Shown here in pieces: positions 4,323-64,000 of a stretch of DNA of 64,000 nt. Source of the DNA: Candidatus Omnitrophota bacterium (GTDB taxonomy: Bacteria; Omnitrophota; Gorgyraeia; Gygaellales; Profunditerraquicolaceae); assembly GCA_026387455.1 (NCBI GenBank), contig JAPLLR010000046.1, forward strand, positions 4,921 to 68,920, read 5' to 3'. Made by a program: the position numbers and the translations under genes. Positions within the stretch are counted from its first letter, which is position 1, and each line of letters opens with the position of its first letter. Below the pieces are notes generated by a model that saw only the letters and a list, made by a program, of their open reading frames with translations, was not told the origin of the DNA and did not search any database.

Positions 4323-4335
4323 GGACACTTCCTAC
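4319..4335. repeat. left inverted repeat of the transposase cassette
   Basis: TTAGGGACACTTCCTAC. It contains the TAG stop (4320-4322) of the upstream ATPase gene. Confidence 0.9.
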
Positions 4336-4440
4336 CTTAGTAACATCATTTATATCAAGCACTTAGGATAATCAGGCTAAAATTCCACAAATTTTTCTGT
4401 TAGATTTTGCCACTTCCTTCGTCTATTATAGTGAGGAGGA

Positions 4441-5058
4441 ATGGTTATGTCTAGGACGGCACGCTTCATTCCACGGTATGGCTATCTACACATTATGTCA
4501 CGAGGTAATAATCGCCAACGCATTTTCTCATATGCACGCGACTATCGATTTTATTGCTCATGTTTGAGGAAACTTAAGGCAGAGGAGTCAGTTAAGATTC
4601 ATCACTATTGCTTGATGCCGAACCACCTACACCTTTTGCTTGGTGTAGGGCCGGCAAGCAATGTCGGCCGCTTCATGCAAAGGCTTGGGCTGAAGTATTT
4701 CTACTATTATCGCGCAAGGCGCGATTATATAGGGCATCTATTGCAAGGTAGGTTTAAGAGCAAGATAATTGTTGATGAAAAGTACTTTCTGCAATGCGGA
4801 AAGTATATTGAGTTAAACCCGGTGCGAGCGCAGCTGGTGAGTTTTCCGGAAGAATACGCTTATTCAAGCTATCGGCATTATGCCTTAGGAGGGGAAGATG
4901 AGATCGTCGATGACGACTTTTTCTATCTTAGCCTGCACAACGATGCCACTCGTCGAAAGGAGCTTTATTCAAATATGCTCTTTGATGAGAAAGGGTGTGC
5001 GAAACAATTGCATATTGATTCTTCTAACTTAATGTTTAACAATGAGTTAATAGAGTAG
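4441..5058 (+). CDS. REP-associated tyrosine transposase / IS200-like Y1 transposase (HUH superfamily, COG1943-like)
   Basis: 205 aa with a strong SD (GAGGAGG) before the ATG. HUH motif in HHYCLMPNHLHLLL; GHLLQGRFKSK; C-terminal YIELNPVRAQLV..PEEYAYSSYRHY with the catalytic-Tyr region typical of this family. Confidence 0.8.
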   Translation: MVMSRTARFIPRYGYLHIMSRGNNRQRIFSYARDYRFYCSCLRKLKAEESVKIHHYCLMPNHLHLLLGVGPASNVGRFMQRLGLKYFYYYRARRDYIGHLLQGRFKSKIIVDEKYFLQCGKYIELNPVRAQLVSFPEEYAYSSYRHYALGGEDEIVDDDFFYLSLHNDATRRKELYSNMLFDEKGCAKQLHIDSSNLMFNNELIE

Positions 5059-5072
5059 GAAGTGTCCCTAAT
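5056..5072. repeat. right inverted repeat of the transposase cassette
   Basis: GTAGGAAGTGTCCCTAA. It contains the TAG stop of the transposase (5056-5058) and, on the other strand, the TAG stop (5068-5070) of the convergent TPR gene. Confidence 0.9.
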
Positions 5073-17100: not shown

Positions 17101-20100
17101 GACTTAAGAAAGACCGCCATATCTTTTGATAACCGCATGGTCGGCCAGGGGCTGGCCACCACTTCTGTGATAAAGGATGGTGAAGTTGCTTATGTGAAGG
17201 GTATATATGCGCCATGGAGTATGGGTAAGGTTGATTTCAGGTTAGTAATTGATGACAATGGAAACATGGTTACTAAGGGTGGCGGGGTATTCGCCGGCAC
17301 AGCTGAAAACCCCATAGAATATGCCTATCAGGACGCTTTCCGCGCCAAGGGAGAGAATTTGACTGAAGCCTACCAGCTGCCTGAGCCCATTAAATTAAAT
17401 AATTATTACTATGATGCAATACTCGGCGAGGGCGGTCTAAGTATCCAGAGTGGCAAAGTAGAAAGCATAGAAGTGGCCGGTAAGGAGATAAAGCTTAAAG
17501 GCCATGATCTAGCAAAAGGCATGATTACTGACAGTAGTACTCCTACCTACTTATTCTTGGGCAGGGTTTCCCGCTTTGACAATAAAGGCAGGCCGCAGAA
17601 AGAGGAAAAACAAAGCTCTACCGAAGCATCGCAAACATGGGATTTTTCTGCCGGCAAGGAAGCTCCTGCTTTTGATCTATCCGGATCTTTCGGCGGGACT
17701 TACGGCAACGTACCTTTTATGGACATAGTAAACAAAGGGATTAATGATACCTTAGATAAAGCGGCGCCTCAAGATAGAAAAAAATTCGTAGATGATACGC
17801 TTGCGGCGCAGACTCAGCGCGCAGAGGCAAAGGGAGATGTTCAGGCGATGCTAAAGGCAGAAATGGAAAAGGCAAGCAGAAAAGATAATCTGGGTATTGT
17901 CTTGTCCGGAGATGATTTCAAGGCCAGAGGCTCGCAGAAGCTGGACTTTACACCCACCAGCAACCTCTTTACTGACGGCGGCGGAACGATCTCAAGAGAC
18001 ATTACTTATAACAACTACACCCTGGTTGTAGATAGTAAGCAGCTGGTGCCTATGGTTACTGACGGAAATGACACCAAAGGTATCTTCCAGAATAAGGCAT
18101 CAGGCAGGATTTCTATCGCAGGCGGTAAATTGGGCGGGCAGGTGCTTACTCCTGGCGCAGGCGTATACGCAGGAACTAATGAGCGCAGAATAAATGGCAC
18201 ATACCAGGATGGAATATTAAATTCTATCTATGAAGCCTCTGGCCCGGTTCCAACTCTCTTAAAGAATTATTATTATACAGCAGAGGTCAAGGATAGCGAT
18301 AGTGACGGCATAGGCGATTCCCTGAATCTTTTGGGGGGAAAAGCGCAGAATATAAATTTTGTGGGCAGGGATTTATTGCCTAATGGAGATTATGAGCTCA
18401 ATAAATCCGGGTGGGCTATTTTCGGCGACTCCAAGGGCAAGTTAGCCCGGATCGGCAGTTTTTCACCTTCGCTTACTCTCTTTAGCGAGCGCGGGCAAAT
18501 TAACTTAGATAAAGATACGATTTTAGGTTCTTTATCCAAAGATGACACAACCTTAAAACTCATGACCACTATCGATGTCGCAAAGTATAGGAGCCTGCTT
18601 GCGGCTGAAGGGTACAGAACAGAAATAAAGAGAAATGATCTTTCCGGAATAAATTATATCCTTATTTACGATGAAAAGAATAGGGAGGTTGGCAGCGCAG
18701 CAGTTAGCGATGACGGCCTGAGGGTGAAGGGGGGAGTAATTCCCATCGCCAGAGACACTGAATCAGACACTATTTTCCGCGTGTACATGTATACCGCTGT
18801 TAAAGATGATAAGATTTACTTGAAACATGACGCATGGAATATCGAACAAGGCGTTGATGACGGCAAGACATTCAATCAGCTAGCTCGAGACGATAACGTG
18901 AAATGGGGACACAGGATGTTTTTGAGAAGTGACGAGACTGAGGGCGCGGACATGGCTGTGGCGCGGATGATGTATGCGCATGGTGTTGGTTCAAGGGGCG
19001 TCTGGTTTAATGATTATGATTCAAGGGATAAGCTGCTCAAAAAGTTTGACAGCGGAGAATATAACTGGTTTAAGATGCAGGATAATTTACTTACCCAAGA
19101 AAAATACACAGGTACAGCCGTCAGGAATTTCTACAAGACTTGGGGTTTTGTCCGCAATTTTCTGCCTGCTGCTCCTAGCGTTGAAGCCAGAGCGGACCAG
19201 AGTAATGGCGGGATGGTTTTGGAAGCAGTGGGAGATGCTGCTTTGATTGCCGGGCCGTTACTCAAAGGAATCGGCGTTGGCGCAAAGGGTCTGCAACTTA
19301 TCGGTGGGACAGCAAACGGTTCCTCTAGGGTAATGAGGGTAATCAACGCAGCAGCCAAATTGGAAGGAATGAGCACTCTTACCAAGGGAAGTGTGCAACT
19401 TGCCACCAAAGGATCAGCCAGTTCTTCTAGAATAATAAGCGGCCTAAGCAAGGGACTTCTTTGGGAGGGCAGGATTGGAAAAGCGGCGCAAGTAGCACAA
19501 GGTACCACTCGCGTTGCGAGCGCTGCCCAGAATCTCTCCTGGGGTTCCAGGGCCTTAAGAGGCGGCTGGAATAGCGGAAAATTTCTGGCTGGTCGCGTTG
19601 CGCCGCGCGTCGGCCTTTACGGCACATTAGGCGGTATCAACAGCTACAATTCCATGTCTGCTGAACAGAAGGATTGGTATTCTAGCGGTAGAGCAGCAGA
19701 AGCGTCGAAGGATTCACAGAATCATGCTATTGCTTTAAGGGATACCTTTAGAAGCTGGGCAGCCAACTGGGAAGTGGGGCTGGATGGTGCCATAGGAAAT
19801 AAGGCAGATGCTGATAAGGCAGATAGTGTTTCCAAAGGCCTGCAGCAGAACGCTTCCGTAATAACGCAGAATAATTCCAAAGCGATTAAAGAAGCAGTCC
19901 CGGGCCTAGGGGGAAAAATCCTGGCGATGCCGATGGATGTTGAGCAGACCCTTTTGGGTTTTGCCGGTTTTCCTTCGAATGCCTCCAGGAATATGGGCAA
20001 ATACGGCATAGCACAGGGTTCAGCAATGAGTGGTTGGAGCATGTACAGCTATCTTTCCTCTGTTGCGGAATCAGGAATATATGCATTGACTTCCCTCGAC

Positions 20101-23100
20101 GGCTATTTTAGGAATTCGGTTTCAGACTCCTACTATCAGGGCTCTATCACTGGGGGATGGGAATCTTTATTAGGTGACGGATTCAGCAATTTTGTCAATC
20201 CTGAAAAGAGCAAAGACACCAATCCTATAACCAATCCCGAGCAGTATGCGGGATTGAGTTATTTCGCAACGCAGATGTGGTTATTGGGCGGTTACAAAGA
20301 AGGTGCAGGCCTAAAGAAAGGCGAAGCCAGAGGCACTCCGCTTTTAGATACATATCAAACCCTGACAGCCATAGAGCTTACACCAATGAATCTTATGCTT
20401 TTCCCCGGAAATGAGCTTGGTAGGCAGGTGGGCATGGTAAAAGAAGCGGCGACAGCAGGTAGAACTGAAGGCGATGCTTCTTCTTTCCGCGGCAGGTTAA
20501 ATCAGCTCGGAAACGCAAATGGCGGCCCCGGGCATCAGTTTGTGGAAAATCTTATTTCTGCAGCCCTACCTTTACGTTCTCCGCAAGCAACTCCTTCGAA
20601 TAAAAGTGAAGTTGCTCCTGTGCAATCTTCTACGGAAGCGGGAGGAACAGTAAGGTTAAATGAAAATGATGTAGTAGGCGATAGGGGCAGAAGAGCGGGG
20701 GGTAGCGATGTGAAGGCTCCTGCTTCTCAGCCTGAAATGTCACGTCCTAACTTCTTTCAGCGTTGGAGTCAGCGTAGTTATCTAAAGCAAGAAGGATACT
20801 CTTTTTCAGAAAGAAGAGCGATTGCAGATGGGCGTCTTGCGCCTACAGATAGAAGTGGAAATGTCAGGGCAGACGTAGTAAATCGTTTTAATGAGATTGG
20901 CGCTACTCCGACTTGGGTTGGAAGATCGCTTAATCGGGCAAGAGAAGCCACCACCACTTGGATTAAGAATCAGATAGACGCCAGCCCCACAGTGAACTGG
21001 TTTAAGAACGATGCCTTTGATATGTCTAAGTCTCCTGTGGTCGATGCCGGCAAAAAAGTAGCTGGCGCAGTAGCTGATGCAGGAAGGGCCACCGCAGACT
21101 GGGCTAAGAATGACGCACTGGATATGTCTAAGTCTCAGGTAGTCAACTGGGCCAAAGACACCAGCGTCGGCAAATGGCTGGCTAACGATGCCTTTGATAT
21201 GAATAAATCTCTTGTGGTCAACTGGGCAAAGAATGACGCCGCTCCTTGGGTCAAGAATCAGATAAATACTAGCCCCACAGTGAACTGGTTCAAGAATGAC
21301 GCCTTTGATATGTCTAAGTCTCGGGTTGTCAACTGGGCAAAGAACACTGCTCTTCCCAATATCGCTGCCTCTGCCAATCCTAAGAACTGGACCACCTATA
21401 ATTGGGCTAAGACAGCTGCTATCTGGGCAAGAGACACCGCCACCCCCTGGATTAAGAATCAGATAAATACCAGCCCCACAGTGAACTGGTTCAAGAATGT
21501 TTGGCAGCTTGCTACTTCCTCGCAGTATCGTTTCCTCAATAGACGCGGTATTAAAGATCCAACTACGAGAGCTGCAATCATCAGGGACGGATATTCAGCT
21601 CCGGAATCTCCCAATAAGACCTTATTTTATGAGATGCGCGCTGATCAATATTTAAAAGACAATGGTTTCTTCTTTAGAAGGCAAAGAACAGCGATTAGGC
21701 AAGGGCGTTTAAAATCTAATGATTTGAGTCTTAGCCGTGATTTTAGCGAAATTCGTAAGGGGCGCGTAGTTTATGATGAGGCGGCCCAAAATGATGTTTT
21801 ATCATCCGGCCGCAATGTACATCTGTCGATGGCTGGTGAATGGGCAGCGGATATAGGCGGAAGGAAGAAGGGTGATGGCGGAAGATCGTTAGAAGCCAAG
21901 ATTCTAAGAGTAGAAAAAGGCGAAGACGGCGCGACTCGCATTTGGTTGGATACAGAGGAGATCTTCGGTGGCCGCGGCGCTACCTCAAGGGACGGAAAGA
22001 CCATATACTTCAGCCGCAACGCGCACGATGGGACAGATGTGCATGAAAGCACAGAAGCAGCCTTGCTATCTAAAGGCATATCCCCGTCAGCGTCACATAA
22101 AATAGCGGCAGAGGCTGAGGTAAGGTATTTAGCGCGTACGCTCGGCTATGACTTAAATGATCCCAGCCAAAGAATGCTAGTAGAGGAAATGGCAAGGAGC
22201 CATTCTGATGCCACTAAGGTCGCTAATAAGGAAAGGGCTCCGCCAGCGCCAAAATCGCCTTCCCATGTAGTTGTTGCTCCCGCAGAAGGACCGGGTTTTA
22301 GAGCTGCTGTTGGAGAAGGCGAAAGTATCAGCGATGTTGCCATAAGAGCTGGCCGCAGGCCAGTAGCTATGCTTACCGAAGGCACACCCAGCGATGCCTC
22401 TCGTTCCAGAACCGCAGCCAATCCCGAATCCGAAACCGTATCTAAATCTCAAGAAGCAATTAAACAAGATAAGCTGACCAGAGAGGCCCGGATATCTGAA
22501 TTCAGGCGGCAGCAGGAAGAAAGACAGGAAATTGAAAGAGCCCAAAATATACTTGGGAGTAAGGATCTTAAGCCGCAATTTATCTTTGCCCCTGAGACTG
22601 GCAGGCGCGTATTCATCGCTACCGCTGATGGAAAGGTGGCATTAGTAAAACATGGAGAAGAGGCGCCGGATATATCCCGCAGACCCATTGCCCTTCTTCC
22701 TGCACCTAAACCTGCGATCGAAGTAAAATCTGAATCCAAATCTGCACCCGCGCAATCTAAAGAAGTTGCGGAATCCAAAGCCCAGCCTGATGATAGAGTG
22801 TCTGTGTCTAACGAAGCCAGGCTTAGGAATGAACAGGCCAATCAGGAAAAGAAGGCTGAGTTTAAAGCAAAACAGGAGAAACTTGAAAGAGTAGCAAAGA
22901 TTGTTTCTGAGACGCCTAATACCGATAAAGCCAAGCTAAGAGTGGCTAAGGAAGTAGTTAAAGATAGAAGCTTACCTAAGAGGGAGCGTTTAGCAGAGGC
23001 AGATAAACTTATAGAAGCAGCAAAGCCATATGCACCCAAGAAAGAAGCTGCTAAGCCAGAAGTCAAAGAGCCGGTTTCTCAGTTGGTTGAATTAGGCGAT

Positions 23101-26100
23101 GGTAAAGGCACGATCAAGGTAAAGGTAAATAATCCGGAAGCGCTCGCAGGAGACCAGAAGAAATTAGAGAGATTAAATCGCGCTGTCGCTAGGATAGAAA
23201 AACAGAATTCTCAAGCTCAGGATGAAGCGGTACAGGGCCAGATTCAGGAAGCTGGATTCTGGGCGAGATTAATCGGCAGAAAAGGCCGTTCAGCTTTTGA
23301 AGCCAGTCCTTCATCCAACCCTGCCGAAAGCCCCGCATTAAAAGAATTAAAAGCGCAACGCGATGCCTTAGCCGAGAAGATCACTAAGAATATGTCGCCT
23401 GTCCCTGAAGCTGATTTGGCCAGACAACATCTCCAGCAATTAAGGAAAGCCATAAATATTCTTAAGGAGACTACTGACTCTGACCGGGCTATGGATAGAG
23501 TGGTTAAGGAAGTAGTCAGCAAGGATAAAAAGCAAACCAACAAAGAGCGCCAAACAGAGGCGAAAAGGTTTATAGAAGAAGCCAGGCGCTATCTGCCTGA
23601 ATCGCAAGCCCCTAAGCCTGTTATACCAAAAGGTCCATCCGTCGTATATTTTGGCAACGAAAGCGGGCCAGTACAAAAAATCCATCTTAGCCCCAAAGAA
23701 ACAACGCAAGATGCAGCAGCGACAGCAGCGAAGGTTTTCCGCAAGCCTATTGCGCTTCTACCTGCTCATATATCTGCACCCAAGCCATTCTTTAGCAGAG
23801 TGATAGATGCCATAAAATCGAAGTTCTCTAGATCTGCTAAGTCTTCCGAGCCAGAGTTACTGCCTTCAGCTAGTCAGGAAGCAAAAGAGGCGATTAGAAA
23901 AGAAAGAGTAGCACAGAGAGATCAGCTTAAGAAAGTAGCGGCCATAGTAGCCGAAGCCGAGACTCCTGGTCAAGCTAAAGTAAAAGTAGCGCAGATGCTG
24001 CAGAGCGAGCCGGCTAAGAAAGACCTATCCAAAGAAGAGAGAAAGGTAGCTTTAAAGAGAGCAGAAGAGCTTATAGAAGAGGCAAAACCGTATGCACCTG
24101 AAGTCGAGCAAGGAAAAGAGCATGCCAGCAAGATCGAAAAAGTTACCAAGATCCTTCAGCAAACCACTGATTCTGATCAAGCCAGGGCAAAAGTCGTAAA
24201 AGAAGTAGTTTCAGACGGTAGAAAGCAGACTAAGAGAGAAAGAATTGTTGACCAGCGTAAGGCAGACCAGTTGATTGTAGAAGCCAGGCGCCAACTGTCT
24301 AAATCGCAAACTCCTAAGCCTGCTATGCCAAAGAGCCCATCCGTCATAAACTTTGGTAATGAAAGTGGGCCAGTAGTAAGAATCAACCTTGGCCCCGGAG
24401 AAACTGCGCAAGATGCAGCAGCGAAGGCTTTACGCAAACCTATTGCGTTTCTACCCGCACCTAAATCCCAAGCCAACAGGCAAGAAGTTGCTAAGCCTGC
24501 TCCATCCGAAGATGTTCGGCCGATGTCTGATGAAGCCATAGCTAAGAATCGGCTGGACAATAGGCAAAGGATAACTGAATGGAAAAACCTGAAGAGAATA
24601 GGACAGATACTTTTCGAAACAGCAGATATCCAGCAAGCCAAGGCAAGAGTAGCGCAAGAGGTGCTTGGGGTCGGTAAGGAAAGATCCCAGAGAGAGCAAA
24701 AAGCTGCGCTTAGGAAGGCAGAAGGGCTTATAGCAGAGGCAAGGCAACATGTGCCTAGCGCCACCACCACTACTGTTGCTCCCAAGTCCAAAATGACAGA
24801 GGTGGCTAGGATCGTGCGCGGTGAGAATGGCGAGCCTGCATTTGAGGCACATCCGACTATGAGTTCCTCCAGCGCGCAGTTGAAGGAGTATGTAGCTACA
24901 GAAGAAGCAGCCCATCTGACATTAGGTAACAGAGGCACAGCCGCGGAAGAAATCGCTGCTAATGTATTTACCCTTGAACGCTTAGGCATACGCGATGCTG
25001 AGAAAGTTACTGATCCGCATTTAAGAGCTTTAGCAGAGATATCATTGGACCATGGCGTAGAGAGCCCCATAGTAAGGACTGCCCGTTTTTATAGCGAGAT
25101 AGATGCGCAATTAAGAGACCAGCTTGTAGACAGCCATGGTAATTTGCGCCGGGACGTTTTGGATAACGCTACTAGACAGCTTGCGGGCCTTAGGAAAAGA
25201 AGCAGCGATGTAGAGGCTCGCAGAGACCATTTGAAAGATTTATTATCCTGGTCGCGCATAGCCGTCAGTAAGGAAGGCCAGCCTCAAGAAGTTTTGGCGC
25301 GTTCGCCGTTCAGGATGGCAGACGCTGGTAAAGAAAGCGCGCAGAAGACGCTAAGTGAATTAATTAGTCAAAGTAACTCCTTGTCTACAGAAGAGGCAAA
25401 AGCTCTTGGGGTTGCAATAAAGAATGCAATAAAATCAGGAACGCCAATTGATCAAATACAAGATCCTACCATTAGAAAGGCAGCTCAACTTTGGAAAAAA
25501 GCTTTTGAAAGTCCAGAGCTAAGAAAAGTGATGAGCTTAGAACTTAAGGAAGATCAGATAGCCCAGACTATATTAGAGGCTGTATCGAGGCCGATACTAG
25601 GTAGAGATTTGGGTGCTGGAAAGACAGCAGGTGATATCGCAGCCTTTGCAGTTCGTTTCCAGGTAGCTACGCAAGAAGGTAAAGAATTGAATGAAAGTTC
25701 TTGGAAAATAAAAGATTTCTTAATTGAGCAAGCAATTGATGGCTCTGACCCCATAGCAAGATTTTTTATGGAAGAAATCGCTAAATCCGCAAAGATATTG
25801 AGATGGGTTGTCGTGCCAGATGGAAAAGGCGGCACAGAGTTTAAAGAAGTGCCTATTGATGGTTTTGAAACCCCAGCGGACGCAAAGAGTAAATTTATTT
25901 TTGCTGATAGTGAAACTCTACTAGAAGTTTATCTAGGAGCAAAAGAGAAGAATGGCGAGAAAATGCGCGAAGCATTTAGGCAACTTACAGGAGCTAGCGC
26001 AGACGAAACACAGCTTTTCTTTGCCAATGCAACTTTGATTAAAGCAGAAATAGGGAAAATGTTTAGTCAGTTAAGTAGGGGAAATATTAAAAAAGCAGAG

Positions 26101-35100: not shown

Positions 35101-38100
35101 AGATGGAGCGTATTAATCGGCCGCGATGCCTCCGTGGGTATCGGTCAGGTGCGCATGAGCACTGCCCGTTCACTCTTAAAGGCTGCCAAGTATCCTGAGT
35201 TTAAAGGCAGGAAAACCAATGTCTCCAACTGGAATCTTTATAAGATGCTCACTAATGAAGATCCGGAGTTTAATATTATGATAGCGGCTATGGCCTTAGC
35301 AGATGTAAGGGACGGTATTGCCAGGGATATTAAGAGCAGCAGGTTGCCGCAGCTTAATGCCGAGCACTTAAGACTGGAAATGGCTTATCGTTACACTTCT
35401 TCCTTGAAAGGCCCGGTGGGTGCGCCGGTAAGCTTCGCAGAGTATAATAAACAGATAGAGAATAAAGATAAGAAGGCGTACAACAGGTCACAGGCAAATG
35501 AGTATGCTTATTGGGTAAGAGCGAATAGGGATTTAATCCGCGGTTTATCCATCTTTACAAATGCTCCCATAGCCAGAAGCTCGCTGCCGGCATTCAGCAT
35601 CTCAGGGGGATTGGATCTGATAGTGGCATTAGTTCTGGCGGTAGTAATTATCGATGCTATCTCGGCGACTTGGAGATATGTTGATCATAAGTTAGGCGAC
35701 CGCCGCGCAAATGAGAGAAAAGACGGATTGTACGCATCTGATAAATATAGAGAGTTTAAGAATAAGGATAGGCAAGAGAAGTTGAACGAGATCAAGGGGC
35801 AGTTTAGGCGCGTAAGAGAAGTAGCGGTATTATGGATAGGGTTGGCAGTCGTGGTGGCTGGGCTGAAGTGGGGCCTGAATAATTGCCGCAAAGACAATGC
35901 TCCGAGCCTGCGTGAAATTGCAGCTGAAGTTTGCGCTGATGCCCAGACCATTAAGGATGAAGGTAATAAATTTATCCAGTGGGGTAAGGAAAGATTCAAT
36001 GATCCGCGCTCTTTCGGGCAGCAGGCTAATTATGCTGCCAGAGAGTTTGGCCGGGATCTTGGCAGTGGTTTGAAACAGAATGAATTGCTTATGCAGGGCG
36101 TAAGCGGAAAAATGGACGGCGAGTTTGCCCTGAAGAAGATAGAGGAAATCAGGGAGGAAAACAGAAAGCAAACCACCAACTCCCTGCCGGCAATCAGCAT
36201 CATCGCGCCAGCAGCGATAATTTCCCTGGTTGCCTTAGCAGTGCTGGTTTATGCGATCTATAGGATTTGCCTGGTTAATAGATATTCCCGCGATAGAGTT
36301 ATAGATATGGTTGCTACAAAGCTGGAAGATAAAATAATTGTTGATACCGAGGAATTAGCCGAGACCAGGATCAGTGGATTAAATGACGCAGAAGAGCGCT
36401 TTGTCCGTGCGATAGTATTGGCAGAAGAGGCGCTTAAGGTCAGGGACCATGAGTTAATGGCTGAGGCAGTAGCTGGACTTTTCGTGGAAACAGAAACCGG
36501 CATAGATATTAAGCTGTTGAAGGATTACTTGGGATTAAGAGAAAAATATGAGAATCCGAAGATGTCTCGTGAAGAAAAAAGAAAGACCCAGCTATCTATA
36601 GCCAGGCATGAGGTGAAGCACGTTATTTCCGGCGTTATGGAAACTCCTAGAAATTCACAGCAGAAGCTGCCTTACTTCGCATATTTTTCTCCCTCCAGCT
36701 TTGGCGGCAGCGTCCAGGTTTCTGTTACTTGCGAGAATACCCGGAAAGCGATCCGTAGGCTCCAAGATATAGAAGCAATCGCCGGCCGAGTCTCAAATCG
36801 TCTCAATAAAGAGGGAGTTATAGATTACCAGGGCCTGGATGCTGAGGCTAATTTTGGCCTGAAGGCAAAAGAGGTGCGTTTTGTCATGGCGATAGTTCAG
36901 GCAGAAAGGGCCATGCGTAAGGCCAAGTCTGATTTAATGGCAGATGCCATCGTAACGCTTTTCACCGCTAAGGAAGTTTCCGCGGATGTATACTTCCTTG
37001 AGAGATACCTGTCCTTAAGAAAAGATTACGAACGCAGAAGGCAGGCTGATGAAGAGGAAGGGCGAGGCAAGGCGCATCATGAAGCCAGGCTGCATATTGT
37101 CAGGTCCGAGCTAAAAGATGTCCTTTCTGCCGTAATCAATATTCGCAAAGAGCAAGGTATTCAGCTGCCCGGATTTGCATACTTCTCACCGGCAGCCTTT
37201 GGCGGCGGAGTTGCAGTTTCCGTCAGCAGCGCAAAAGTAGAACCCATTATCCGTAGAGAGGTTGGCAGCAGGTTTAAAATCGGTGGTACTGAATATAATG
37301 AGGCGGATTCCAGTCGCGGGCATCGCATCGCCGGAGGAAAGGCTTGGAATATTCTGGCGGATTGGGATGTAAACACTGAAGGCGTTTATTTCGAAATGTT
37401 GAAAAGGTTAAGCAGCAAGGGTGTTGATTTAGCGTCCGTCTCAGCTGATGGCCGGGCTGATGTCTTAAGGGAAGTCTTTGATACTATCTTGAATCTTGTC
37501 CCCTTCAATGCAAATTTTGAAGGCCTCAGCAAAATCGGTAAAGTATTCGAGCAAGGCGGAGTCTGCAAGCATCATGGCGTATTAATTGCCATGTTTGTGG
37601 AGCGCATACTTAACAATTATAGCTCTAAATGGAAAGGCGCAATTTACTTTGTTTACGGCCCCAGCCATAATCCCACCCATGCCTGGGCCCTTTATGTGAC
37701 CAGGGCTGGAGATTATTGCGTTTTTGACGTAACACAGAGAAAGATCGTTGGTCTGGATGGGCAATTTAGTTGTAACGATCAAGGCACAAAGGTTCCTTAT
37801 TCTGATGGTGTAGGTATGAATGATATCATCGCACGCACCAACGCAAGATTACGGGAGAGCAAAGAAGAATCAGATAACTATAGCGTTACCGGCTTGCCTA
37901 CATTTGGAGAAGCGATTCGCAGGGATCCCCAGAATCGCAGACCGCCCTCTACTGATGATAGAGAGTTGCCGGCACTTGTCTTCGTAGATACGCAGACATT
38001 AGTTGTAGTAGCTGCGGTGGCGGCAGTGATTATCGGCGCAGCTTACCTTGTTTACCGGGTCTATAACGGTTATATGAATCACAAAGTAGCAGTGGCAAGC

Positions 38101-41100: not shown

Positions 41101-44100
41101 AGCAGCGAATTAACATATTACGGATTCTATAAGAAGCTGGCAGAAGAGATCCTGCCTCAGGGCAAGGTTATCTTTAAGGTTATACCTTCCCAGAATATGG
41201 GCTTCAGGAGAGACGACGGCGATAAGACCTATATCTATGCCGTCGGCACAAAAGGCGATATTACCTATATCTATGTCACTTCTGCTTTATATGAAAAGAT
41301 CAGGGCAAGCACATATTTCAAAGCTGCCCTTTGCGTCCATGAGGTAGGCGAGACTAGAGACGTGTTCAATCACCTGACTGCCATGAAAGAAGAGATCCGC
41401 TTTTCCAGCGATCCGAAAAGCAACTTAAGCGACATGCAGCGTCTTGTATTTGATTCCGAGAATGATAAAGGAAACATGGCTTACCTATTAAGCATTATCC
41501 CGGATCGCCTTGTCCAGAAGGCATATTCTGATATCACCAGCGAGATGATCAGCTATGTAAGCCTGCTTATCGCCAAGCAGGTGCACGAAAGGCCGGTAGA
41601 CGCAGCTGTCATAGAGGAGGATGCTAATATCGCTGATTCTTTGCGTCATAGGCTATTCGATTCCATAAATAAGGCTACCCAGAATATTAGCATCCTTGGG
41701 CAGGGAGGCATATTATCAGAAGAGGTAAGGGGCGCCCTGAAAACTACCGAAGAATCAATCAACATCATTCTTACTTCCATAGAGGATGGAAAATTGAACC
41801 CCATAGCCAAAGACGCAGCGATCAAATTGCTTAAGAAACAGGCCAGGATCCTTAGGGAATTAACAGAAAATATGGCTTATTTGGAAAGATTCGAATCTTT
41901 TAATTCTCTTAAGAAGGATATCGATGAGTTCTACAAGAGGGTAGTTGAGGGGACACCTACGGTGGTAAAGGACCAGGAGCTGATTGACCTGGCTGATTTT
42001 ATGCAAGCCATCCACACTGAGCATTATGGGTATGGCTTTAGGCCGGTTGTTTCTGACCCTGGAATGCCTTTACCTATATTAATTAATGCGCATGACCTGA
42101 TGAGGATCTTTGAAGATCTATTACAGGCAATAGCTAGGAGAGCACATAAATCTAACACGGCAGTAGTATTTGTCACTGAACCCGGATTAATTAAAGTGAT
42201 TTTTAAGAACACCGATGCAGACGTAGTTGCTGTTCAGGCACTGCTGGAGAAGTGGCATGGCAGGGCATATCGTACACAGATAATCGGCACTTTAGGTGAT
42301 ATCGTCTTAGAGTTCCCTAAGGCTTTCAAGCTCTATCAGACTATTTCAAATGAAGTATTGGCTCAACTTGCAAATACAGATTGGGTTGTTTCTGTCTGTC
42401 AGCATAAAGAAAACCATGAGAATTTTATTGTTGATGAAAAGGTAAGTAGGATGACCGTTTACGGCCAGTATCTTTCACATGGCATGTGTCCGCAGTGCGA
42501 AAAGAAGAATCGTCCTGTTGAGTCAGAAGCTCAGGCAGCCGCAGCGAAGGTTCCGTCTGCGCCAACCAAGATCAGAGTTTTGTTTGTGGATGACGAAAAA
42601 GCAATTAGGGATATGATGGCGGGAAGAAATAATATGCCAGGATACCTGGCGATGATAGCTAAAGATAAGACAGTGAATCTTTCTTTTGAAGTGGTGATCG
42701 CGGAAAACGCCCAGAAGGCGCTTAACGCGTTTGTAGATGCCCAAAAGAAAGGACAACCTTTTGACTTAGTGGTCACCGATATGTCCATGCCGAAAAATCC
42801 TGATGAAGAGATCGAAGGCGGACGTGAATTAGCCCAGGCGATTAAGAAGATTGCACCCCAGACTTATATTATTATGGTCAGCGGTCATCACAGCCAGATG
42901 ACAGAGGTGGCCCAAGCTATCAAGGAAAATGTAATCAATAGTTTCTACACCAAGCCATTTATCGGAGAGGCAGTTAAGGAAGCGCTGCTAGGGTTTAAGA
43001 CCGCGCCCAACCTACAGGAAAAAGCACCTGTTAAGCAGGATGTTAGTATACTTGGTTCTGCGGCTGCCAGTGCCACAGCAGCGGCTACAGCAGCGCTGGC
43101 TTTCTACGCAGCAAAGGCAGTGATTATTTCCAGCTTTCATCCTTTCGCCATAGCGTTATTCGGAGTTTTAGCAGCAGTGTGTTTTGTCTCTGCGGCATGG
43201 GCTTATCTTTTTGGTTCGCAGGCTATCAGGCTATGGTTAACCAGGGCCAAGCCTGTACGCGCGCCTCCTGAGGCAAGAGCCAGGTTAGAAGCACAGCTGC
43301 AGGATTTCTTCGGGCCTGATGTCAAGGTGGTTCTGGAATCCGACTGTAAGACTATTGCCTCAAGCGATAAAGATAATAAGACAGTATTTGTTGATATCGA
43401 TTGGCTTTATAGGGTAGCTCCCCGCGCAACTGAACTTACCTCGTTCCAGAAATCTCTCCTCACCCATGAAAAAGCCCACTTAAACGGTGCCACAGAATCA
43501 GAAGCTTATATTGCCCAGGTTCTCGCTTCCCTTGTCCAGGATATTAATAATGCTAAGGGCGTTAAATTATGGGCGCTGTTCCTGGGTGTAGTTACATTAT
43601 GCCTAAGTTATAATAAACTTATTGCCGCATTTCCGATTTTAGCCACAGGCTGGATCGGAGTCCTTCTTATTGGCACAGCACTGGTGTTGTTGGGTGTTAA
43701 CTTTGTGCTTGCAAAATTCACCAAGAGAGGGGCTTCAGCTTTCTTTACCACAGTTGCATTGACTTTCTTCTTTGTCGGTCTTCTATTGGCGGTGGATGTG
43801 TTTAACCCGCTTTACGGAAATATCCTGAAGAGCTGGTTTCCGCAGACATGGTTGGCTTACATTGCTGACATGCGCGGAGCGGCAATAGCGATAGTAGCTT
43901 TTATTTCTCTGATCGTTCTGCCGGCTTTGATCAGGGAATATCAGGATAAGTTGGCCAAAGAGGATATCTATAAATACGATATCAAGGCTTTAAAAGATAA
44001 TCTTCTCAGGTTTATTAACGACGACATCAAGGATGAAAAGGTCAGGCAAAACTATATTGATCAGGTGGAAAGAATTGCTGTAAATAATTCTCGGGCAAAT

Positions 44101-47100
44101 AGAAGATACCTGCGCGATGTGCTTATGGTGCTGGAATGGGAGTTGTCAAAACAGAATGCTATCAAGGACCGCGCCTCATTGTTCCCGACTGCCCAGGAGC
44201 GTAAAGACGAAGCTGCAAGCGTTGATACGCAGAAAGCTCAAGACGCCCAGAAGGCCGGAATTGGGGCGATAGCTAAGGTTTCTTGGTTAGGCGTACTTTG
44301 TTCTTTTATCGGTCACAGCATCCAGGAGAGGGAAAAGAGGTTCTGGGACAGGGTTGCGGATTATTCCGGAGCTAGGAAGGTCTTTTACTTTGTCTTCGCT
44401 TTAGTTGCATTCATTCCTAGTTCAGCATTGGGGATAGCATTGCATTTTGGCAAGGCAGCCAGAGATTTCTTTATCCGTCATCAGGATAGGAACAACGAGG
44501 AAGCTTTTAGAATGCATGGCATGATGGCTGGTAAAGAGCTTTTGAAATTAGCCGACGCAGAAGAGCATGTAAGGGCTGCGTTTATGATGGCGGATAGGAT
44601 CAGCTTGAGCGGTAAACCTTCCGCCAATGTTTCGAATAGTATCAGGTTAAGCAAGAGGGGAATCTTCTGCCGGGAATGGTGGCGCTATCACTGGTTTGCC
44701 GCCAGAATGCGTTGGCCTAATGTCACCGGTGCCCTCTCATTTGTTAAGAGCAGGGTGGTCTTATTGATTTGCGGTTCCATCATCAGCTGGCCGATTGTCT
44801 ACGTTCTTTGCATACACTGCCCATGGTTGGCTAATGCTGTTCCGTTAATCAAGCCGCTCTTAGATGGCTGGGCTGTCAAGCAGGGCTTCCCGATTACCTG
44901 GGCCGAAATCTTGAAGATATTCTTCCTAGAGCTCTTCCTTACCTTCTTCCAGAACCCTGGTCTTCTTAGGGATGAATTATTGCGTTTTAATGGAGCGCAG
45001 AGCATTATTCAGGTCGAGCCCGGAAAGGCCAGCGCAAATATTGATAGGGGCATTATAAAAGGATTAAATGAGAATAATATGAGCACCAGGAAATTATATA
45101 ATGCCGGCTATGTTATCTTTACCGGAGCCCCGCATCTGAAGCTATTATTTGAGGAGAAGTGGGGAGCCTCCCGCGATAGCCATCCTTTGATTACCCTGAA
45201 AGCTTTCGCAAGCAATATCCTTAACGTAGCTACTTTAATGGTCCCGCTAGTAGTTATTCCCACGATGCTTTATACCTTATCTAGCTGGCATGTAGCATCA
45301 GCGGTCCTTATCTTATCGCTTTCTTTAGTGGCCTTCTTGGCTCCCAGACAATTCTATGTGTATATAGCGTTTAAACTCTCTCCGCCAAAAGACAAAGAAG
45401 CGCAGGATAGGTTGAAAAGAAGAATAGTGTTCGCCGCGGCATTGGATAAGCAGAAAACTGATTTCTTAAAGGGCGCGTGGGGGCTATCCATCATCGGAAT
45501 TGAAATCGGCGCCATCCGTGAATTAGGTCACCTGATACAGGGCCCGATAGGCACCATCGCTGATATTTTTGAAGGGCCGGAAGGCGCCCTGTCTCTCGGC
45601 GGACGCTTCTTCTCTTACTACGAAAGCCAGATCTGCGAGCATGTCTTTGGAATGCAGATTGACCAGCAGGATGAGCAGGATAAGAAAGAAATAGTTAGCC
45701 AGTTCCTTTATAATTACTTCGGCGGTAAGGGCCCGATGGAAGCAGCGTTTGCCTATGCCAGCTATCGCAATCGCGAATATTCCAAGGCCGCGCAGCTTAT
45801 GTCTGGCATCGTGAGTAGGTATGATTTAGATCAAGAAGGCCGTAACTTGACTGACAATGTCATGAAGGCTAGCGGTGAAGGCCTATCAGATAACCTTGGA
45901 AAGGCGATGAGGGAAAACGCCGAGGCCAGGGAAAGGCTTGCCAAGAATCGCGATAGATGGATAGCAGATATGGCGGACAGTCCTTATTTAAGCCAGGAAG
46001 CGTTTCTGGGTATGTTTGGCGTTGACGGATTCGAGCACTATTATAACGCTGTTGGTGACAATAAGAATAAGCTGGATCAGACTTTGCCTAATTCAGTCAA
46101 AGAAGTAAGAAATAATCTGATTCAGACAGCTCAAGTTGCTTTTGAGAAATGGCTCGTCAAAGGCGGGTTAGCAGAAGATTCCTTGCCTGTCGAGTTGATA
46201 GTAGCCAGGCAGTCTGATGTGGCTGAACCGGTTTCTGGCCAGCAGCAGGTGGCGGTATTAAGAATAAACCCTTTAACCAAGGAAGCCAGGATTTACTACT
46301 GGACCTCAGATGGGGAAACGGCTAAAACAGAAGTTTCTTGGGCCAATATTAGCGGAATAGTGATACCTGAAGGATTAAAGCAGTCTGTCATTGTTCTGAC
46401 CTCTCAGGAGCTCTTGACTGGCGAAGGTAAGGATGCCGGGTTCATCGTGCAGGCAAAAGGCCTGATCGAGGCGGTGTTAATTGATATCAAAAAGACCAAG
46501 ATTACCCTTGCAGAAAAGGACATTGATACCAGGGTGCTGGAGGAGCGTAAGGCAGAAGCGCTCAGGATAAAGGGCGTAAGCCGCCAGACTGAAGCCATCC
46601 ATATCAACGGAAACGGTAACGGCGAAGACACCCAGAGCATTATGGATAAGTTGATCAAGTTGGGCCCCAAGACCTGGCGCCAGCTTTTGAGAGGAGAGAA
46701 TCAGCAGGATTTTGTGAGCGTGATTAAGGCCATGGAAAGGGCTGGCTATCTGGATGACTGGAGCGAGGATGGTTTAACCGCAGCCATGGAGGCCTTCTGC
46801 AGGAGCAAGGGAGATTTAGATTTTAGGAAAGATTTCGCGAAGGTAAAAGATGCCGTCGTCAAAGAGCTGAGGGAGAGGGTCGGAATAGAAAAGGAAATAG
46901 AGAAGATCAAGGTAGAGATCAAGAAGGTTGATCCTTTAGAAGAGGGCAAGAAGAAAGAGCTCAAGATTAAAGAAGTAATGCTTGAGATAGAATTAGCCCA
47001 GATGGCTAGCAAAGTAAAGGATGCAGTCAGGGAGACCAAGGAAGATAAGGCAAGCGTAGCCACCAAGATAGGTAATTGGATTGGTCGCCAGAAGACAGAG

Positions 47101-56100: not shown

Positions 56101-59100
56101 ACCAGCCAGCGGACCACTAGCTCTACCTCGACTAGCCAGCAGACCTCTCTGGACCAGGAGAATAATGATCTTCTCCAGCAGCAGGATAATCAGCAGTATG
56201 TATTAAATAGCAGCAAGCTGATTTCTATGGGTAATCTTGGGAAGCTGCGCGCGGATTACAGCGTCCTGATCAATTCCGATAGGACTGGCAGCGGCACAGG
56301 CACTGAGGATACCTCTACCTCAACTACGGCTAGCTCCTCTAGCCAGCAGGAAGCCGAGCAAAGGCGCCGCGCCAACGAGCATCGCATCGGTTTGGAATAC
56401 GAAAGAGGCACGGATGTGAAATTCAAGGCAGGAGTTAACTTCTATATTAATTACGATAATGTAGATGCCTCTAGCGATACTACTACCACTACTGGCACAA
56501 CCACAGAGGATAATGCCAGCCCATATCGCTATGTGATATATCTGGACGCGGATACTGACTCTACCAACGGCCGCATCGGAGTGGAGGTCAAAGAAGACGG
56601 TGAGCTTTCTGTCTTCTCCAGCTACCGCCATCTCTTTGACTTAAACGGTAACCGCGGAAGGCTGGAGTTGAGCTATCAGGATCAGACCATTTACGGAAAA
56701 TATAATCAGAGAGCCGGAGCCTGGGTCTTTGAAGGATTATTCCAGCAGGACGATACCGCGCTGATTATCGATGTCCGCGCCGGACGCGATATCGGCAATA
56801 GCGGCTGGAGATGGGGTGTGGGAGACAGATATCAGGCCAATGATGATAATTCAGATACACAGGATAGTTCTACTTCTACTTCTACTTCTACCACAGATAG
56901 CTCTTCCAACAATAAGAGTAATGTGCCGTATCTTATCCTCGCCAAGAAATCTGGTAGCGTAGAAGTCTTTAACTTAAAAGCGGGTTGGGATACTGAGACC
57001 AATAATCCGGATGGAAAAGTTAAGGGACAGTATATGACGACCGCCAACAATACGTTATATTTAAGCGCGGAGACTAAGGCTGAAAACACGCAGGCTGAGC
57101 TGGGCAATATCTATTGGACCGGAAACACCGGAAAGCTGACCACTGCGGTGAACTGGACGACAGATGAAGGATTGGGAGCACTATTGAAGTGGTCCGGCCG
57201 CCGCAGCTCTTTAAGCGTATCCGGGACAGAATCCGGCCTAAACGCTACCGCCGAATATTATCTTTTGGGCGAAAATAGCTCTGCCAGCTCCAGGTCACAG
57301 ATAGATAACTCCAACATCCTTAATCTGAGGACGCCGGTAGGCAATATCCGCTATGATTCCAGCTACGCTGAGATAGTGAAAGGTTTACGGGAGAACCTCA
57401 GGAAGGCTGGCACGGATACCAGCAGTGTCTCCAGCGATACCGATATTGAAAGATTGGTAAAGAAGGTAGTGGGCGATAAGGTAGAAAGTAAGAGTATCGA
57501 GTTATTTGAGCGCCTTGGCAAATACATGAAGACTGACGACCTACTTAACCTTCTGGAAGATTATAATGCTCTGCGTAAGAACAGCAGCCTGCCGGAATAT
57601 TTAGGCGTGGATAGCGAAAGCATTGATCTGATGAACCCGTTGCATTTCTGGGAATTCAATTACTGGAGAGAAAAGTACAGGCAGGACAGGCATCAGGCCA
57701 TAGAGTCTATCAACAATCTTAACCAGCTTAAAGATGAAGTCGCTGTACTTATGGGCGAGAGGGCATTTAATTCCGGTAACAGCAAGGAAGTCGGGCTGGT
57801 GCGTCATTTTGCAAGTTTAGTTAATTCAGAGATGCCGGTAGAAAATGTGGAAAGCTATTTGAACAACGCTATCCAGGTCAAGGCCTATTTGACCGCAAGC
57901 AACCGCGCCTTGCCTTATCCGATCATGCCTAAGCTGGACGTCACTGATCCGGAAGCGCTTAATTTCTTATTCCAGTGGACTAATAAATATATAGCCTGGC
58001 GCAATGATAGCATTACTGACCCGCAAGTCTCCAGGCTTATGGCTTACACCGCTGTTTTCTTGAAGGACGAACAGGTGGCCTTCAATACTCAGGCGCGCGC
58101 ACCTCCGCAGATCGCCCAGACCATCGAGCTTGCTGAGAAGCTGCTTAAGGAAGACTCTCAGATGAACGCGGCACAGTTAATCCGCTTCAGCGAACTTTAC
58201 CATACCACCTTAGACAGATTAGGCACCGAATTCAGCCCCGATTTAAAGTTCTACACTGCTTTGCAATTTAGCCCTCTATCCGCGATCGACCCGCAGCGTG
58301 TCAAAGAAGCCAAAGATGCTATTACCCAGGCTGTCTCCGAAGTTGCCTGCGCCTCAGAAGACATCTCGCTTTGTGAGGACAGGGTAGTTGCCCGCCTGAC
58401 TTATCTAGAATATCAGTATCGTGATGTAGCCGTACGCCTTGAGAAGATGATGGAGATGAGGAGTTTCTTTGAAGAGCTGGTCTCTGGGTTAGAGATCTCT
58501 GACTTAAGCCGCCAGGCCATTGATTTGTATTATTGGGTCAAGGCGGAAGAAAGGGACAGCAACGTCAGGAGAGACTTCCTTACTCTCAAGAGGATACATA
58601 CAGATGCGGTCTTTAACGGCGCGCCTTACAGCTTAAGATTGGAAGACCTGAGGAAGCGCCTTGGAGAGCAGCAGGAGATGAACAAGAATTTAAAGAATGA
58701 TTTAGTTCTTGTGGATGAGTTCTTAAAGGCGGTCAAATATTACAGGGCTTGGATGGGCACTTCTAAAGAGCCGCGCATAGAAGTTGAGCGAGCGGGCATA
58801 AACAGCTCGATATTAAAACCGCTATTCCACATAGATCTATCCAACGGATTAGACGAAATGGATAGGCCTGGATTAAAGAAGATGCTTGCATCACCTAGCA
58901 GTAATTTTGATCAGATAAAGGTCAGATCAGTAAGGGCGGATGCGCAGACCGGATTCATTGCTACTGTTAGCGACGCAGGGATATTGATCAACAGGGAGAT
59001 CCTGAATAATGATTCTGTCAAGGCAGGCGAATTCATCGAGCAGGTATTAGAAAGAGCAAATCTTGATAAAGAAGAGAGGGCGCATATAGAAGCGCTGCGC

Positions 59101-62100
59101 GGCCTTGAAAGAGGAAAGATGATCCAGCTCATCCTGGTCCATGAATTAGGCGCGCGTTTCGGATTTGCCCACGAATCCAACATCAGCCTTGAGGAGATCT
59201 ACAAAGGTTATATGGGCTGGGGCTCTGAACAGGCTAAGGCCGGCGAGGAATTGCTGAACAGATTAGACAATTTATTCCAGAAGACCCACACTATCGTAGA
59301 TTACAATTATGACGGTGATGGTACAGACCTTGCAGCCGCTGATGCTGCAGGCGACGCAGAGCCGTTGGCTCTGGATCCGTTTGCTCCCGGGACTACCGAA
59401 TACGAGTTGGTGCACGAGAGCGCGTTCCTGAGTCTTTTTGGCGTGAGCAGCTATGATGACTGGGTTGCATCTTTTGGAGAGGATTCCGCTGCCCTTGACT
59501 GGGTAGGCGGCAGGGCTCAGGAAGTAAGCAGTAATTATGGAGGCAGCGTCAGCGCTTATATTAATGATCTTACGGTCGTGCAGTCGTTATCTACGGCTTT
59601 AGGTAGCGCTTCTATGGGAGCAAAGACGATTTTCGAAGGCGCTTATCAGGTGAGCATTACTCAGCTTACTTGGCATACTACTGCATATATGACCGAATTG
59701 TTTAGTGTTGTGGGCAGTTCTGATTGGGAAGGGGTAACACAGTTCATTGATTTCTTAGAGAAAGTCGCTAACTTTGACGCAGCTCTTAAGTCAAGCTCCT
59801 ATAGCACTCAGATAGATGCCGATATCTTATACAGCGCTTTTGGCGTGCGTTTCTTAGATGGCATCAGTAAGGCAGAGCTTGGCATAATCGGAGACGAACA
59901 GTACGGTATACTTTATGACGAGCAGGGTAATGTCAGGGATGCCAGCGACGCTATTAGTTTCTATGAGTCGGTGTATCTGTTCTACGCCGCTTGGCAGTCC
60001 AGTTCTGTCTCAAGCCAGCTTAACTCTACCATATTTGTACCTGCTTTCGGTCTGGATATTTCTAACGGCATACAGGCCGCTGACCTGGTCATCTTCGGCA
60101 ACCAACATTACGGGCTGCTTTACGATGAGTCCGGCAACGCTAGAGACGCCAATCAAGCCATAGATTTCTATACCAAGGTATATCAGTTCTACGCCGCCTG
60201 GCAGTCCAGTTCTGTCTCAAGCCAGATTAATTCCACGATTTTTATCTCGGCCTTTGGCCTGGATCTTTCTAACGGCATACAGATAGCGGATTTGTTAGTG
60301 TTCGGTAACCAGCAATACGGATTACTGTATGATGAGTCCAACAACGTTAGAGACGCCAATCAAGCTATAGATTTCTATACCAAGGTGTATCAGTTCTACG
60401 CCGCCTGGCAGTCAAGCTCTGTCTCAAGCCAGATTAATTCCACGATCTTTATCCCAGCTTTCAGCCTGGATCTTTCCAATGGTATACAGATAGCGGACCT
60501 GCTGGCATTCGGTAATCAGCAGCAGGGTTTACTCTATGACGAGCAAGGTAATTCTAGAAGCGCTAGTTCCGCTATTGAATTCTATGGGGCAGTATATCAG
60601 TTCTACGCCGCCTGGCAGTCCAGCTCTATGGCTAGTCAGGTCAACGCTACTTTATTCATTCCTGCTTTCGGTCTGGATCTTTCTAACGGAATCCAGGTTT
60701 CAGATTTGCTCGCGTTCGGCAACACGCAGTATGGCTTGCTTTATGATGAACAGGGCCACGTCAGAAGCGCAGATGCGGCTTTAGATTTCTATATTTCCGT
60801 TTATCAGTTCTACGCCGCATGGCAGTCTAACTCCTTTGCCAGCCAGATAAACTCCAGCATATTCATCTCTGTCTTCGGCCTGGATCTTTCTAACGGTATC
60901 CAGGAAGCTGATTTAATCATATTCGGCAACACGAATTATGGATTGCTCTTTGATGAGCAGGGCAATTCCAGGAATCCCAACGACGCCATAGATTTCTATG
61001 AGGCGGTGTATCAGTTCTACGTCGCTTGGCAGTCTAGCACTTACGCCGTAGCCATCAATACCCTGATCTTTAACTCCGCTTTTGCTGGGCTGGATCTCTC
61101 AGATGGTATTCAGATGGCGGACCTTTCGGCATTTGGTAACAGGAATTACGGCATACTGTATGATCAGGCAGGAAATTTAAAAGACCCTAATGCCGCGATC
61201 GATTTCTACGAGGCAGTAGTAGAGTTCTACAACGCCTGGAATGCCTCTAGCCTGAAGAATGACATCAACAGCATCATCCTCGGCCCTGTCTACGGCATCA
61301 ACTTAAGCGACGGTATCAGCGAGGCAGAGCTTGCCGCCTTCGGACGCAACGACCAGACGACCGGACATTACAATCCGCTTTATGACGATCAGGGCAATCT
61401 CAGGGATCCGCAGGACACCCTGGACTTCTTCGCGGCAGTGGTCAGCTTCTACAACGCCTGGAACGCCTCTAGCCTGAAGAACGACATCAACAATATTATT
61501 TTTATTCCTGCATACGGTTTGAATCTGGCAGATGGGTTAAGCGAAAGTGAGCTGAGCATAATGGGCGATGGAACTTTAGGCATACTTTATGAAACCGCCG
61601 ACCACTTAAGGGATGTAGATAGGGCCATGGAGTTCTATGAGGCCATAATCGTCTTCTATCAGGCCTGGAACGCTTCGCCTTTAAGGAATGAGATCAATAC
61701 ATTGATCCTGATCAACGCCTATGGTATCGACTTATCTGACGGCGCTATACAGTTAAGCGAATTGAGGGCTTTGGGTATCTACGAGTCTATTCCCAACGCT
61801 CCGCTTCTATATGACGAGAACGGGCAATTAAGGGACGCCGCTGACACAATGGATTTCTTTGAGGCGGTCGTGGGCTTCTATCAGGCTTGGAATACTTCGT
61901 CTTTAAGGAATGAGATAAATTCCCTCATCTTAATATCCGTCTACGGCATAGACTTATCCGACGGCATTAATATTTCCGATATAAACGCCTTCGGCAATAA
62001 AGACCCGAATAAGCCGTATATGTTATATGACCAGGACGGCAACCTGAATAACGCATCTGACATCATCGATTTCTTTGAACTGGTGGTTGAGTTCTATCAG

Positions 62101-64000: not shown

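Follow-up and report, generated by a model that had tools for sequence, protein, structure and literature searches.

A tandem array of acidic helical repeats in the tail of a giant Omnitrophota protein: a probable new repeat family and candidate scaffold

We examined a 64,000-nucleotide (nt) stretch of DNA from a Candidatus Omnitrophota bacterium (GenBank assembly GCA_026387455.1, contig JAPLLR010000046.1, positions 4,921 to 68,920 of the forward strand), hereafter the window, which carries a giant open reading frame (ORF) with an array of tandem repeats near its visible 3′ end. The array is genuine and protein-coding, with 15–16 helical units of 69–74 residues each. When units were anchored on the motif [FY]G[LIV][DN]LS[ND]G in the translated frame, 15 clear units were found between 59839 and 63000, all in one frame and accompanied by degenerate flanking units. 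They start at nt 59839, 60046, 60253, 60460, 60667, 60874, 61081, 61291, 61513, 61720, 61942, 62155, 62368, 62581, and 62794. The periods are 69 amino acids (aa) six times, then 70, 74, 69, 74, and four times 71 aa, corresponding to 207 nt six times and 207–222 nt thereafter.

A profile derived from the units gave 16 matches in the giant protein, all within aa 17192–18290 and none elsewhere in its 18,620 aa; the sixteenth match is a leading half-unit that begins at aa 17192. Tandem Repeats Finder, which is independent of the anchoring, reported a 207-nt array at 59970–61038 and a 213-nt array at 62155–62772. Anchored units, profile, and Tandem Repeats Finder agree on the tandem array that the original prediction, made from the DNA alone, had placed here. 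Its count of about 16 is matched by the 15 clear units with degenerate flanks and by the 16 profile matches, its phase was reproduced by motif anchoring, and its consensus proved essentially right in the unit alignment. The predicted unit length of 67–74 aa was too wide, as no 67-aa unit is present.

The array falls into blocks (Table 1): U1–U6, all of 69 aa; a heterogeneous stretch, U7–U11, with insertions of 1–5 residues in the loop preceding the LYD motif; U12–U14, all of 71 aa; and degenerate end units. In the leading partial unit, U0, just the counterparts of the long and third helices are present. When the giant protein was compared with itself by BLAST in 300-aa chunks, an orphan partial unit emerged ∼330 aa upstream of the array (aa 16858–16908, aligned to the units at 17410 and 17548 with E = 1e-5 to 5e-5). 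The array has a net charge of −102, an isoelectric point of 4.05, no cysteine, and 14% aromatic residues. A 116-aa ORF with a GTG start lies antisense within the array (62842–63192, minus strand); it is unsupported and probably a chance ORF.

Table 1. Features of the window, with positions in nt from its first letter
Feature	Position	Strand	Description	Basis
Giant gene ORF, holds the array	8140–63999	+	ATG at 8140; at least 18,620 codons, no stop before the 3′ window end	
Orphan partial unit	58711–58863	+	…FLKAVKYYRAWMG…INSSILKPLFHIDLSNGLDEMD	Self-BLAST of giant protein
Conserved pre-array module	59116–59829	+	∼240 aa; has HELGARFGFAHE	BLASTP to relatives
Leading partial unit (U0)	59713–59838	+		Profile match and alignment row
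U1–U6, proximal block	59839–61080	+	Each exactly 69 aa (207 nt)	Motif anchoring, alignment
U7–U11, central block	61081–62154	+	70, 74, 69, 74, 71 aa; heterogeneous	
U12–U14, distal block	62155–62793	+	71 aa each; YGIDLSNGIQ..APNYNPLYD type	
U15	62794–63000	+	First half canonical, second half degenerate	Alignment
Trailing degenerate unit (U16)	63001–63213	+	Barely recognisable	Alignment; BLASTP against P0001 units
Conserved post-array region	63079–63993	+	Cut by window end	33% identity to P0029 aa 3958–4266, E = 4e-47
T2SSE/PilT-type secretion ATPase gene 1	1820–2893	+		Pfam PF00437
T2SSE/PilT-type secretion ATPase gene 2	2994–4322	+		Pfam PF00437
IS200-like Y1 transposase	4441–5058		Upstream of giant gene	
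TPR_12 protein	5068–6132	−	Upstream of giant gene	
Two ORFs	300–1640, 6393–7637		Upstream of giant gene; no Pfam match	

We searched for relatives at the protein and DNA levels. With the whole array as query, a word-indexed search recovered three partial proteins, each with an Omnitrophota label. An exhaustive HMMER search, in which a 15-unit profile was run against 1.84 billion cluster representatives, returned 49 proteins at E ≤ 1e-3, including 24 at E ≤ 1e-10. Locus searches of genome and metagenome contig collections, queried with single proteins, recovered neither a relative nor the contig of the window itself. Among the weak hits scanned were four TPR/Sel1 proteins (TPR_12, TPR_10, Sel1) and one unrelated Listeria-Bacteroides repeat protein. 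Because the weakest matches are cross-matches, the true family appears to comprise roughly 35–45 sequence clusters in this collection. Of ten named relatives, seven carry an Omnitrophota label; each of the ten is a partial ORF on a short contig that it fills. The other three come from Bathyarchaeia, Deltaproteobacteria, and Elusimicrobiota bins, on contigs of 3–11 kb largely or wholly taken up by the partial ORF, and mis-binning may account for these labels.

A degenerate DNA motif scan of metagenomes returned 12 loci, of which only two are real arrays. One, L008 (WNFI01154014.1), encodes P0050, a complete ORF of 4,472 aa with 16 units of 70–77 aa; the other, L006 (Ga0155753_153), has at least 12 units. 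The highest DNA identity between units of these two arrays is 85–89%, and most pairs are at 55–70%. Their subfamily carries DL[DN]KP in place of the DLS[ND]G loop, and the L008 array has a net charge of −1. A comparison of copy number, suggested alongside the original prediction, shows that it varies among collinear relatives (4, 7, at least 10, and 16): the window protein has 15–16 units, P0006 has 7, P0029 has 4, and P0001 has at least 10.

Divergence among the window units shows that the duplications are old and occurred in blocks, and that purifying selection has maintained every unit, because synonymous sites are near saturation and the proportion of nonsynonymous differences (pN) lies below that of synonymous differences (pS). 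The closest pair, 60046 versus 60253, shares 85% DNA identity; the next pairs share 67–76% and most share 46–63%. By the Nei–Gojobori method, pS is 0.47 and pN 0.07 for the closest pair, and all remaining pairs have a pS of 0.52–1.0 and a pN of 0.12–0.54. The statement that copies 2–4 share ∼95% DNA identity does not hold, as the best pair of the array reaches 85% and all others 46–76%. Ongoing expansion, gene conversion, or recent homogenisation, as first proposed, does not fit a closest pair that already differs at 47% of synonymous sites. Other members of the family have expanded recently, since fragments P0007 and P0008 contain nearly identical units.

Units that lie close together in the array resemble each other more than units further apart (Spearman 0.62; reached by 0 of 2000 permutations). 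The predicted divergence gradient thus holds insofar as similarity falls with distance along the array, but what is seen is a set of blocks instead of a simple gradient. U1–U6 share 52–88% protein identity among themselves and 65–88% with the nearest unit, compared with only 44–52% to any unit of other proteins. As these units are mutually far closer than to outside units, the proximal block seems to have been amplified in this lineage, though not recently. Several of the U7–U11 units are as near to units of fragment P0005 (up to 60–66%) as to their own neighbours, and U12–U14 share 69–80% protein identity and 71–76% DNA identity. Identity to other units drops to 27–41% for U15 and 13–28% for U16.

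These data also bear on whether the array was inflated, collapsed, or recently homogenised, either as an assembly artefact or by ongoing gene conversion. Such an origin could be suspected from the regular period, with 207 nt repeated six times, and from the one neighbouring pair at 85% identity. However, the longest exact repeat within 59601–63300 is 32 nt, pS is at least 0.47 in every pair, the frame is open all through the array, and arrays of similar size occur on the independent contigs L008 and L006. We consider an artefact or active conversion extremely improbable. Because exact repeats are so short, assembly collapse is unlikely and ordinary assemblies should resolve the array; the concern that assemblers might collapse or expand it carries little weight. 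For genome quality, the array is no assembly hazard.

We then asked whether the unit belongs to a known family. The array has no Pfam match and no genuine NCBIfam match, no Pfam family recurs among 53 single units, and no PDB fold match was found for the repeat unit. Sub-threshold matches of the array to Pfam “Glyoxalase”, NCBIfam “glyox_marine”, and prfB are spurious. The papers on Omnitrophota giant genes report HEAT, TPR, NHL, WD, TSP3, and dockerin repeats together with a beta-helical tubule, and a 69-aa helical repeat is undescribed in both the first paper (10.1101/2023.11.21.568195) and the 2026 survey (10.64898/2026.06.07.730766). The earlier view that the unit belongs to no known repeat family is thus upheld across Pfam, NCBIfam, PDB folds, and these papers. 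The unit is best regarded as a new family of helical repeats whose resemblance to the TPR clan is local and sub-threshold.

This resemblance raises the possibility that the unit is a divergent Sel1-like or TPR repeat forming an ordinary TPR-type superhelix. A Sel1-like repeat unit has 36–44 residues folded into two antiparallel helices. Over ∼28 residues, the window repeat (G-[IL]-L-Y-D-E-x-G-x-x-R-D-x-x-x-A-I-x-F-Y-x-x-V) resembles the Sel1 pattern LG-x-x-Y-x-x-G-x-G-V-x-x-D-x-x-K-A-x-x-W-Y-x-K-A (PF08238, e.g., Helicobacter HcpC, PDB 1ouv), and both are tandem helical repeats of secreted or envelope proteins. A 53-unit profile matched HcpC (1ouv_A) with a summed E value of 3.5e-8, all seven Sel1-like repeats aligning in phase to unit positions 21–49; it matched 6ork, 1klx, and 6deh more weakly, and the TPR_12, TPR_10, and Sel1 proteins among the weakest matches of the 1.84-billion search point the same way. 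On the other side, no single HcpC stretch is significant (E ≥ 30), hhalign against the Sel1 protein P0048 reached a probability of only 24%, covering 28 of 69 columns, and Pfam Sel1 matched 1 of 53 units (E = 0.084) and nothing on the whole array at E ≤ 0.01. The window unit also has 69–74 aa and three helices, not two, and the segment corresponding to Sel1 helix A is predicted to adopt an extended hairpin. No superposition of the repeat fold on Sel1-like or TPR superhelices was obtained. Membership in the Sel1/TPR families is in our judgment improbable.

The acidity of the array suggests another reading, in which the units are calcium-binding loop-helix motifs of EF-hand or dockerin type and the array is a Ca2+-stabilised rod. 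The D-L-S-[ND]-G-I-x-x-x-[DE]-L loop and its following helix resemble a shortened EF-hand or dockerin loop, the net charge of −102 is in line with this reading, and giant proteins of the dockerin type are known from the same phylum. An EF loop has 12 residues, D-x-[DN]-x-[DN]-G-x-[ILV]-x-x-x-[DE]. The loop in our unit is 1–2 residues shorter, with its hydrophobic and glycine positions out of register, and on this basis an EF-hand or dockerin identity was rejected. The array has no EF-hand or Dockerin Pfam match, positions 10 and 13 fit an ordinary helix capping box, and the L008/L006 subfamily lacks both the loop and the acidity. A Ca2+-stabilised rod is accordingly a very improbable explanation.

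Another comparison is with the F/FG (FIVAR-GA) repeats of Embp and Ebh, 1-MDa staphylococcal surface proteins. No match to FIVAR/GA Pfam models or three-helix-bundle structures was found, and these repeats serve as a functional analogue, without shared ancestry. The Embp F/FG repeats are tens of tandem all-alpha units that are rigid, elongated, and engaged in multivalent ligand binding (PMC7587433; see also PMC9302970).

Structure prediction gave a consistent picture of the unit. AlphaFold2, run on alignments of non-overlapping unit blocks, returned a predicted local distance difference test score (pLDDT) of 91.3 and a predicted template-modelling score (pTM) of 0.85 for four units, and a pLDDT of 93.6 and a pTM of 0.84 for two units, with an identical helix pattern in each unit. 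The predicted unit consists of a helix of 7–8 residues, and an extended loop with two bridge residues (LYD…R), followed by helices of 20 and 13 residues. Conservation is highest at core aromatic or aliphatic residues (F1, L5, L14, F17, L25, Y26, F41, F48, I61, and I65) and at turn glycines (G8, G18, G23, and G30). Conserved polar positions resemble helix caps (S/T/Q at 10 with D/E at 13; D/N at 34, P at 35, and D at 37). This pattern is more in keeping with a structural scaffold than with a ligand pocket.

We also examined the regions that flank the array. The tail of the window protein aligns collinearly with P0006 along ∼3,300 aa (aa 14538–17822 of the giant protein versus P0006 411–3687, 27% identity, E = 0) and, in pieces, with P0029, post-array region included (E = 4e-44 to 4e-47). 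The conserved pre-array module (BLASTP: P0014, 40% identity, E = 6e-45; P0003, E = 9e-44; also P0021 and P0040) directly precedes the array in the window protein, P0003, P0014, P0021, and P0040, and has no Pfam or PDB match. Its HELGARFGFAHE motif, at 59140–59175, could form a site of metal-binding or peptidase-like type. Pfam searches drew a blank for the 2,233 aa that precede the array, for P0006, P0001, P0002, P0011, P0016, and P0020, for the P0029 tail, and for the ORF after P0001.

Beyond the array, another ∼740 aa follow in P0001 and ∼2,490 aa in P0029, a membrane helix lying close to the end of each, and the window frame itself runs past the window. The array is therefore not the end of the protein, contrary to the original wording, which placed the binding or adhesive end here. 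Nor was evidence found for a rod upstream of it; the ∼2,700 aa before it show no repetitive structure and align collinearly with P0006. A PDB sequence search with the post-array region was empty, and the beta-helical “tubule” described in Omnitrophota giant proteins may be represented by this region. Short Y-x-Y or YD-like beta-strand motifs are frequent in it (window 63700–63999; P0029 aa ∼4200–5900). A YD/RHS identity for this region in the window protein and P0029 is not claimed, as the likeness is by eye and no Pfam RHS/YD match was found.

The host gene looks like an Archaeovorin-type giant multi-pass membrane protein gene of Omnitrophota. In their published description, Archaeovorins carry a C39 domain close to the N-terminus and numerous membrane regions, and their genes lie downstream of a locus resembling type II secretion (10.1101/2023.11.21.568195). 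The window protein likewise has a Peptidase_C39 domain (PF03412) at aa 182–261 (30.3 bits against a cutoff of 22), close to an N-terminal hydrophobic segment (aa 23–43) that is preceded by a basic N-terminus. Its scattered enzyme domains comprise an M50 peptidase and an ICMT/PEMT methyltransferase, and Pfam also identified a Response_reg receiver domain (aa ∼11515–11615). A hydropathy scan found ∼30 hydrophobic segments at aa 6735–12401 and none beyond, so that the array lies in a helix-free tail of >6,200 aa. Upstream stand two T2SSE ATPase genes (PF00437, E = 1.8e-47 and 1.9e-31), the window covering part of the published >10-gene locus, and the tail relatives are labelled Omnitrophota. The original definition asks for an Omnitrophota genome and a length of at least 30,000 aa (10.1101/2023.11.21.568195); the host ORF is visible for 18,620 aa, where the window end cuts it. 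Within these visible residues, we found no dockerin or TSP3 Pfam match and saw none of the glycosyl transferases, NUDIX domains, or SecA-like domains of the Archaeovorin paper.

Two further observations concern the visible protein upstream of the tail. Weaker internal repeats occur at aa 2402–3412, 4717–5555, and 9441–9706 (window ∼15343–18375, ∼22288–24804, and ∼36460–37257; 32–42% identity, E = 1e-5 to 1e-20). An HExxH motif, THEKAHLNG, lies at window ∼43480–43500 (aa ∼11785), in a hydrophilic loop between hydrophobic segments and downstream of the receiver domain.

As for the side of the membrane on which the array lies, P0001, P0020, and P0029 each have a strongly basic C-flank on the first membrane helix after the array. 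In P0050, an SLT lytic transglycosylase shares the helix-free stretch of the array, and in L006 a hydrophobic segment lies between the SLT domain and the array. The basic C-flanks and the SLT placement in P0050 together suggest a non-cytoplasmic location, and we lean toward placing the array on that side. P0050 has no N-terminal signal peptide; a signal-peptide-like segment occurs at aa 4031.

Taken together, we propose that the units are a new helical repeat family forming a stiff, very acidic scaffold in the tail of the giant protein, a reading in which our confidence is evenly balanced. Each unit would contribute, in order, a short helix with a cap (…[ND]G-I-Q-x-x-[DE]-L…), then an extended loop resembling a hairpin (G-[IL]-L-Y-D-E-x-G-x-x-R-D), next a helix of 20 residues (…A-I-D-F-[YF]-x-x-V-x-x-F-Y-x-A-W), and finally one of 13 residues that continues into the following unit. 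Consecutive units would pack into one continuous helical scaffold, whose length would be set by copy number, from 4 to 16 among relatives. It would space or present the conserved modules on both sides and may offer a repeated interaction surface. We infer this function from predicted shape, conservation, and neighbours. Several points weigh against it. The acidity is not universal, given the L008 net charge of −1, and the DLS[ND]G loop becomes DL[DN]KP in the L008/L006 subfamily. The alignments given to AlphaFold2 were made of the repeat units themselves, which can inflate confidence in inter-unit packing. Finally, the last membrane hairpin of the window protein (aa 12355–12401) is followed by a basic flank (KLSPPKDKEAQDRLKRR; window 45200–45450), which by the positive-inside rule would place the tail in the cytoplasm, in conflict with the relatives.

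A repeated surface of this kind could also bind. In this alternative, the array is a multivalent binder of a periodic envelope polymer of prey or host (peptidoglycan, pseudomurein, or S-layer glycan), with one site contributed by each unit and avidity tuned by copy number. In P0050 and L006, one ORF encodes both an array of 12–16 units and, ∼1,300 aa after it, an SLT domain (PF01464, E = 4e-20 and 8e-16), and the units of P0002 flank a weak match to a GH76 alpha-1,6-mannanase (6u4z_A, E = 0.0028, aa ∼290–660). The weak local similarity to Sel1/TPR repeats and the purifying selection on every unit would suit binding as well, as would the published view that these giant proteins have a role in adhesion and in the digestion of cell walls (10.1101/2023.11.21.568195). 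However, P0050 and L006 are close relatives and count as one independent association, and the 18,620 visible residues of the window protein contain no SLT domain. Helix caps and turns largely account for the conserved polar residues, and the conspicuous DLS[ND]G loop is not kept in the very subfamily that carries SLT. The SLT and GH76-like associations are, by these sequence comparisons, few and weak, and we regard polymer binding as possible but unlikely. Somewhat more doubtful is the fuller proposal that the unit is a new alpha-repeat fold without a solved counterpart, specific to the giant envelope proteins of Omnitrophota, which beside lytic domains such as SLT would provide a multivalent grip, tunable by copy number, on a periodic wall polymer of prey or host.

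Omnitrophota giant proteins run to tens of thousands of residues, and most of their sequence is without annotation. The array defines within them a compact, confidently foldable, and rare repeat family for which a Pfam-style model is possible, and it marks a conserved tail architecture of pre-array HE…H module, array, and conserved post-array region. A fragment of 2–4 units is small enough to express and solve, offering a tractable entry to the question of rigid projection versus wall-polymer binding. If the wall-gripping fold were real, the array would be a lineage-specific part of a predatory or episymbiotic attachment apparatus.

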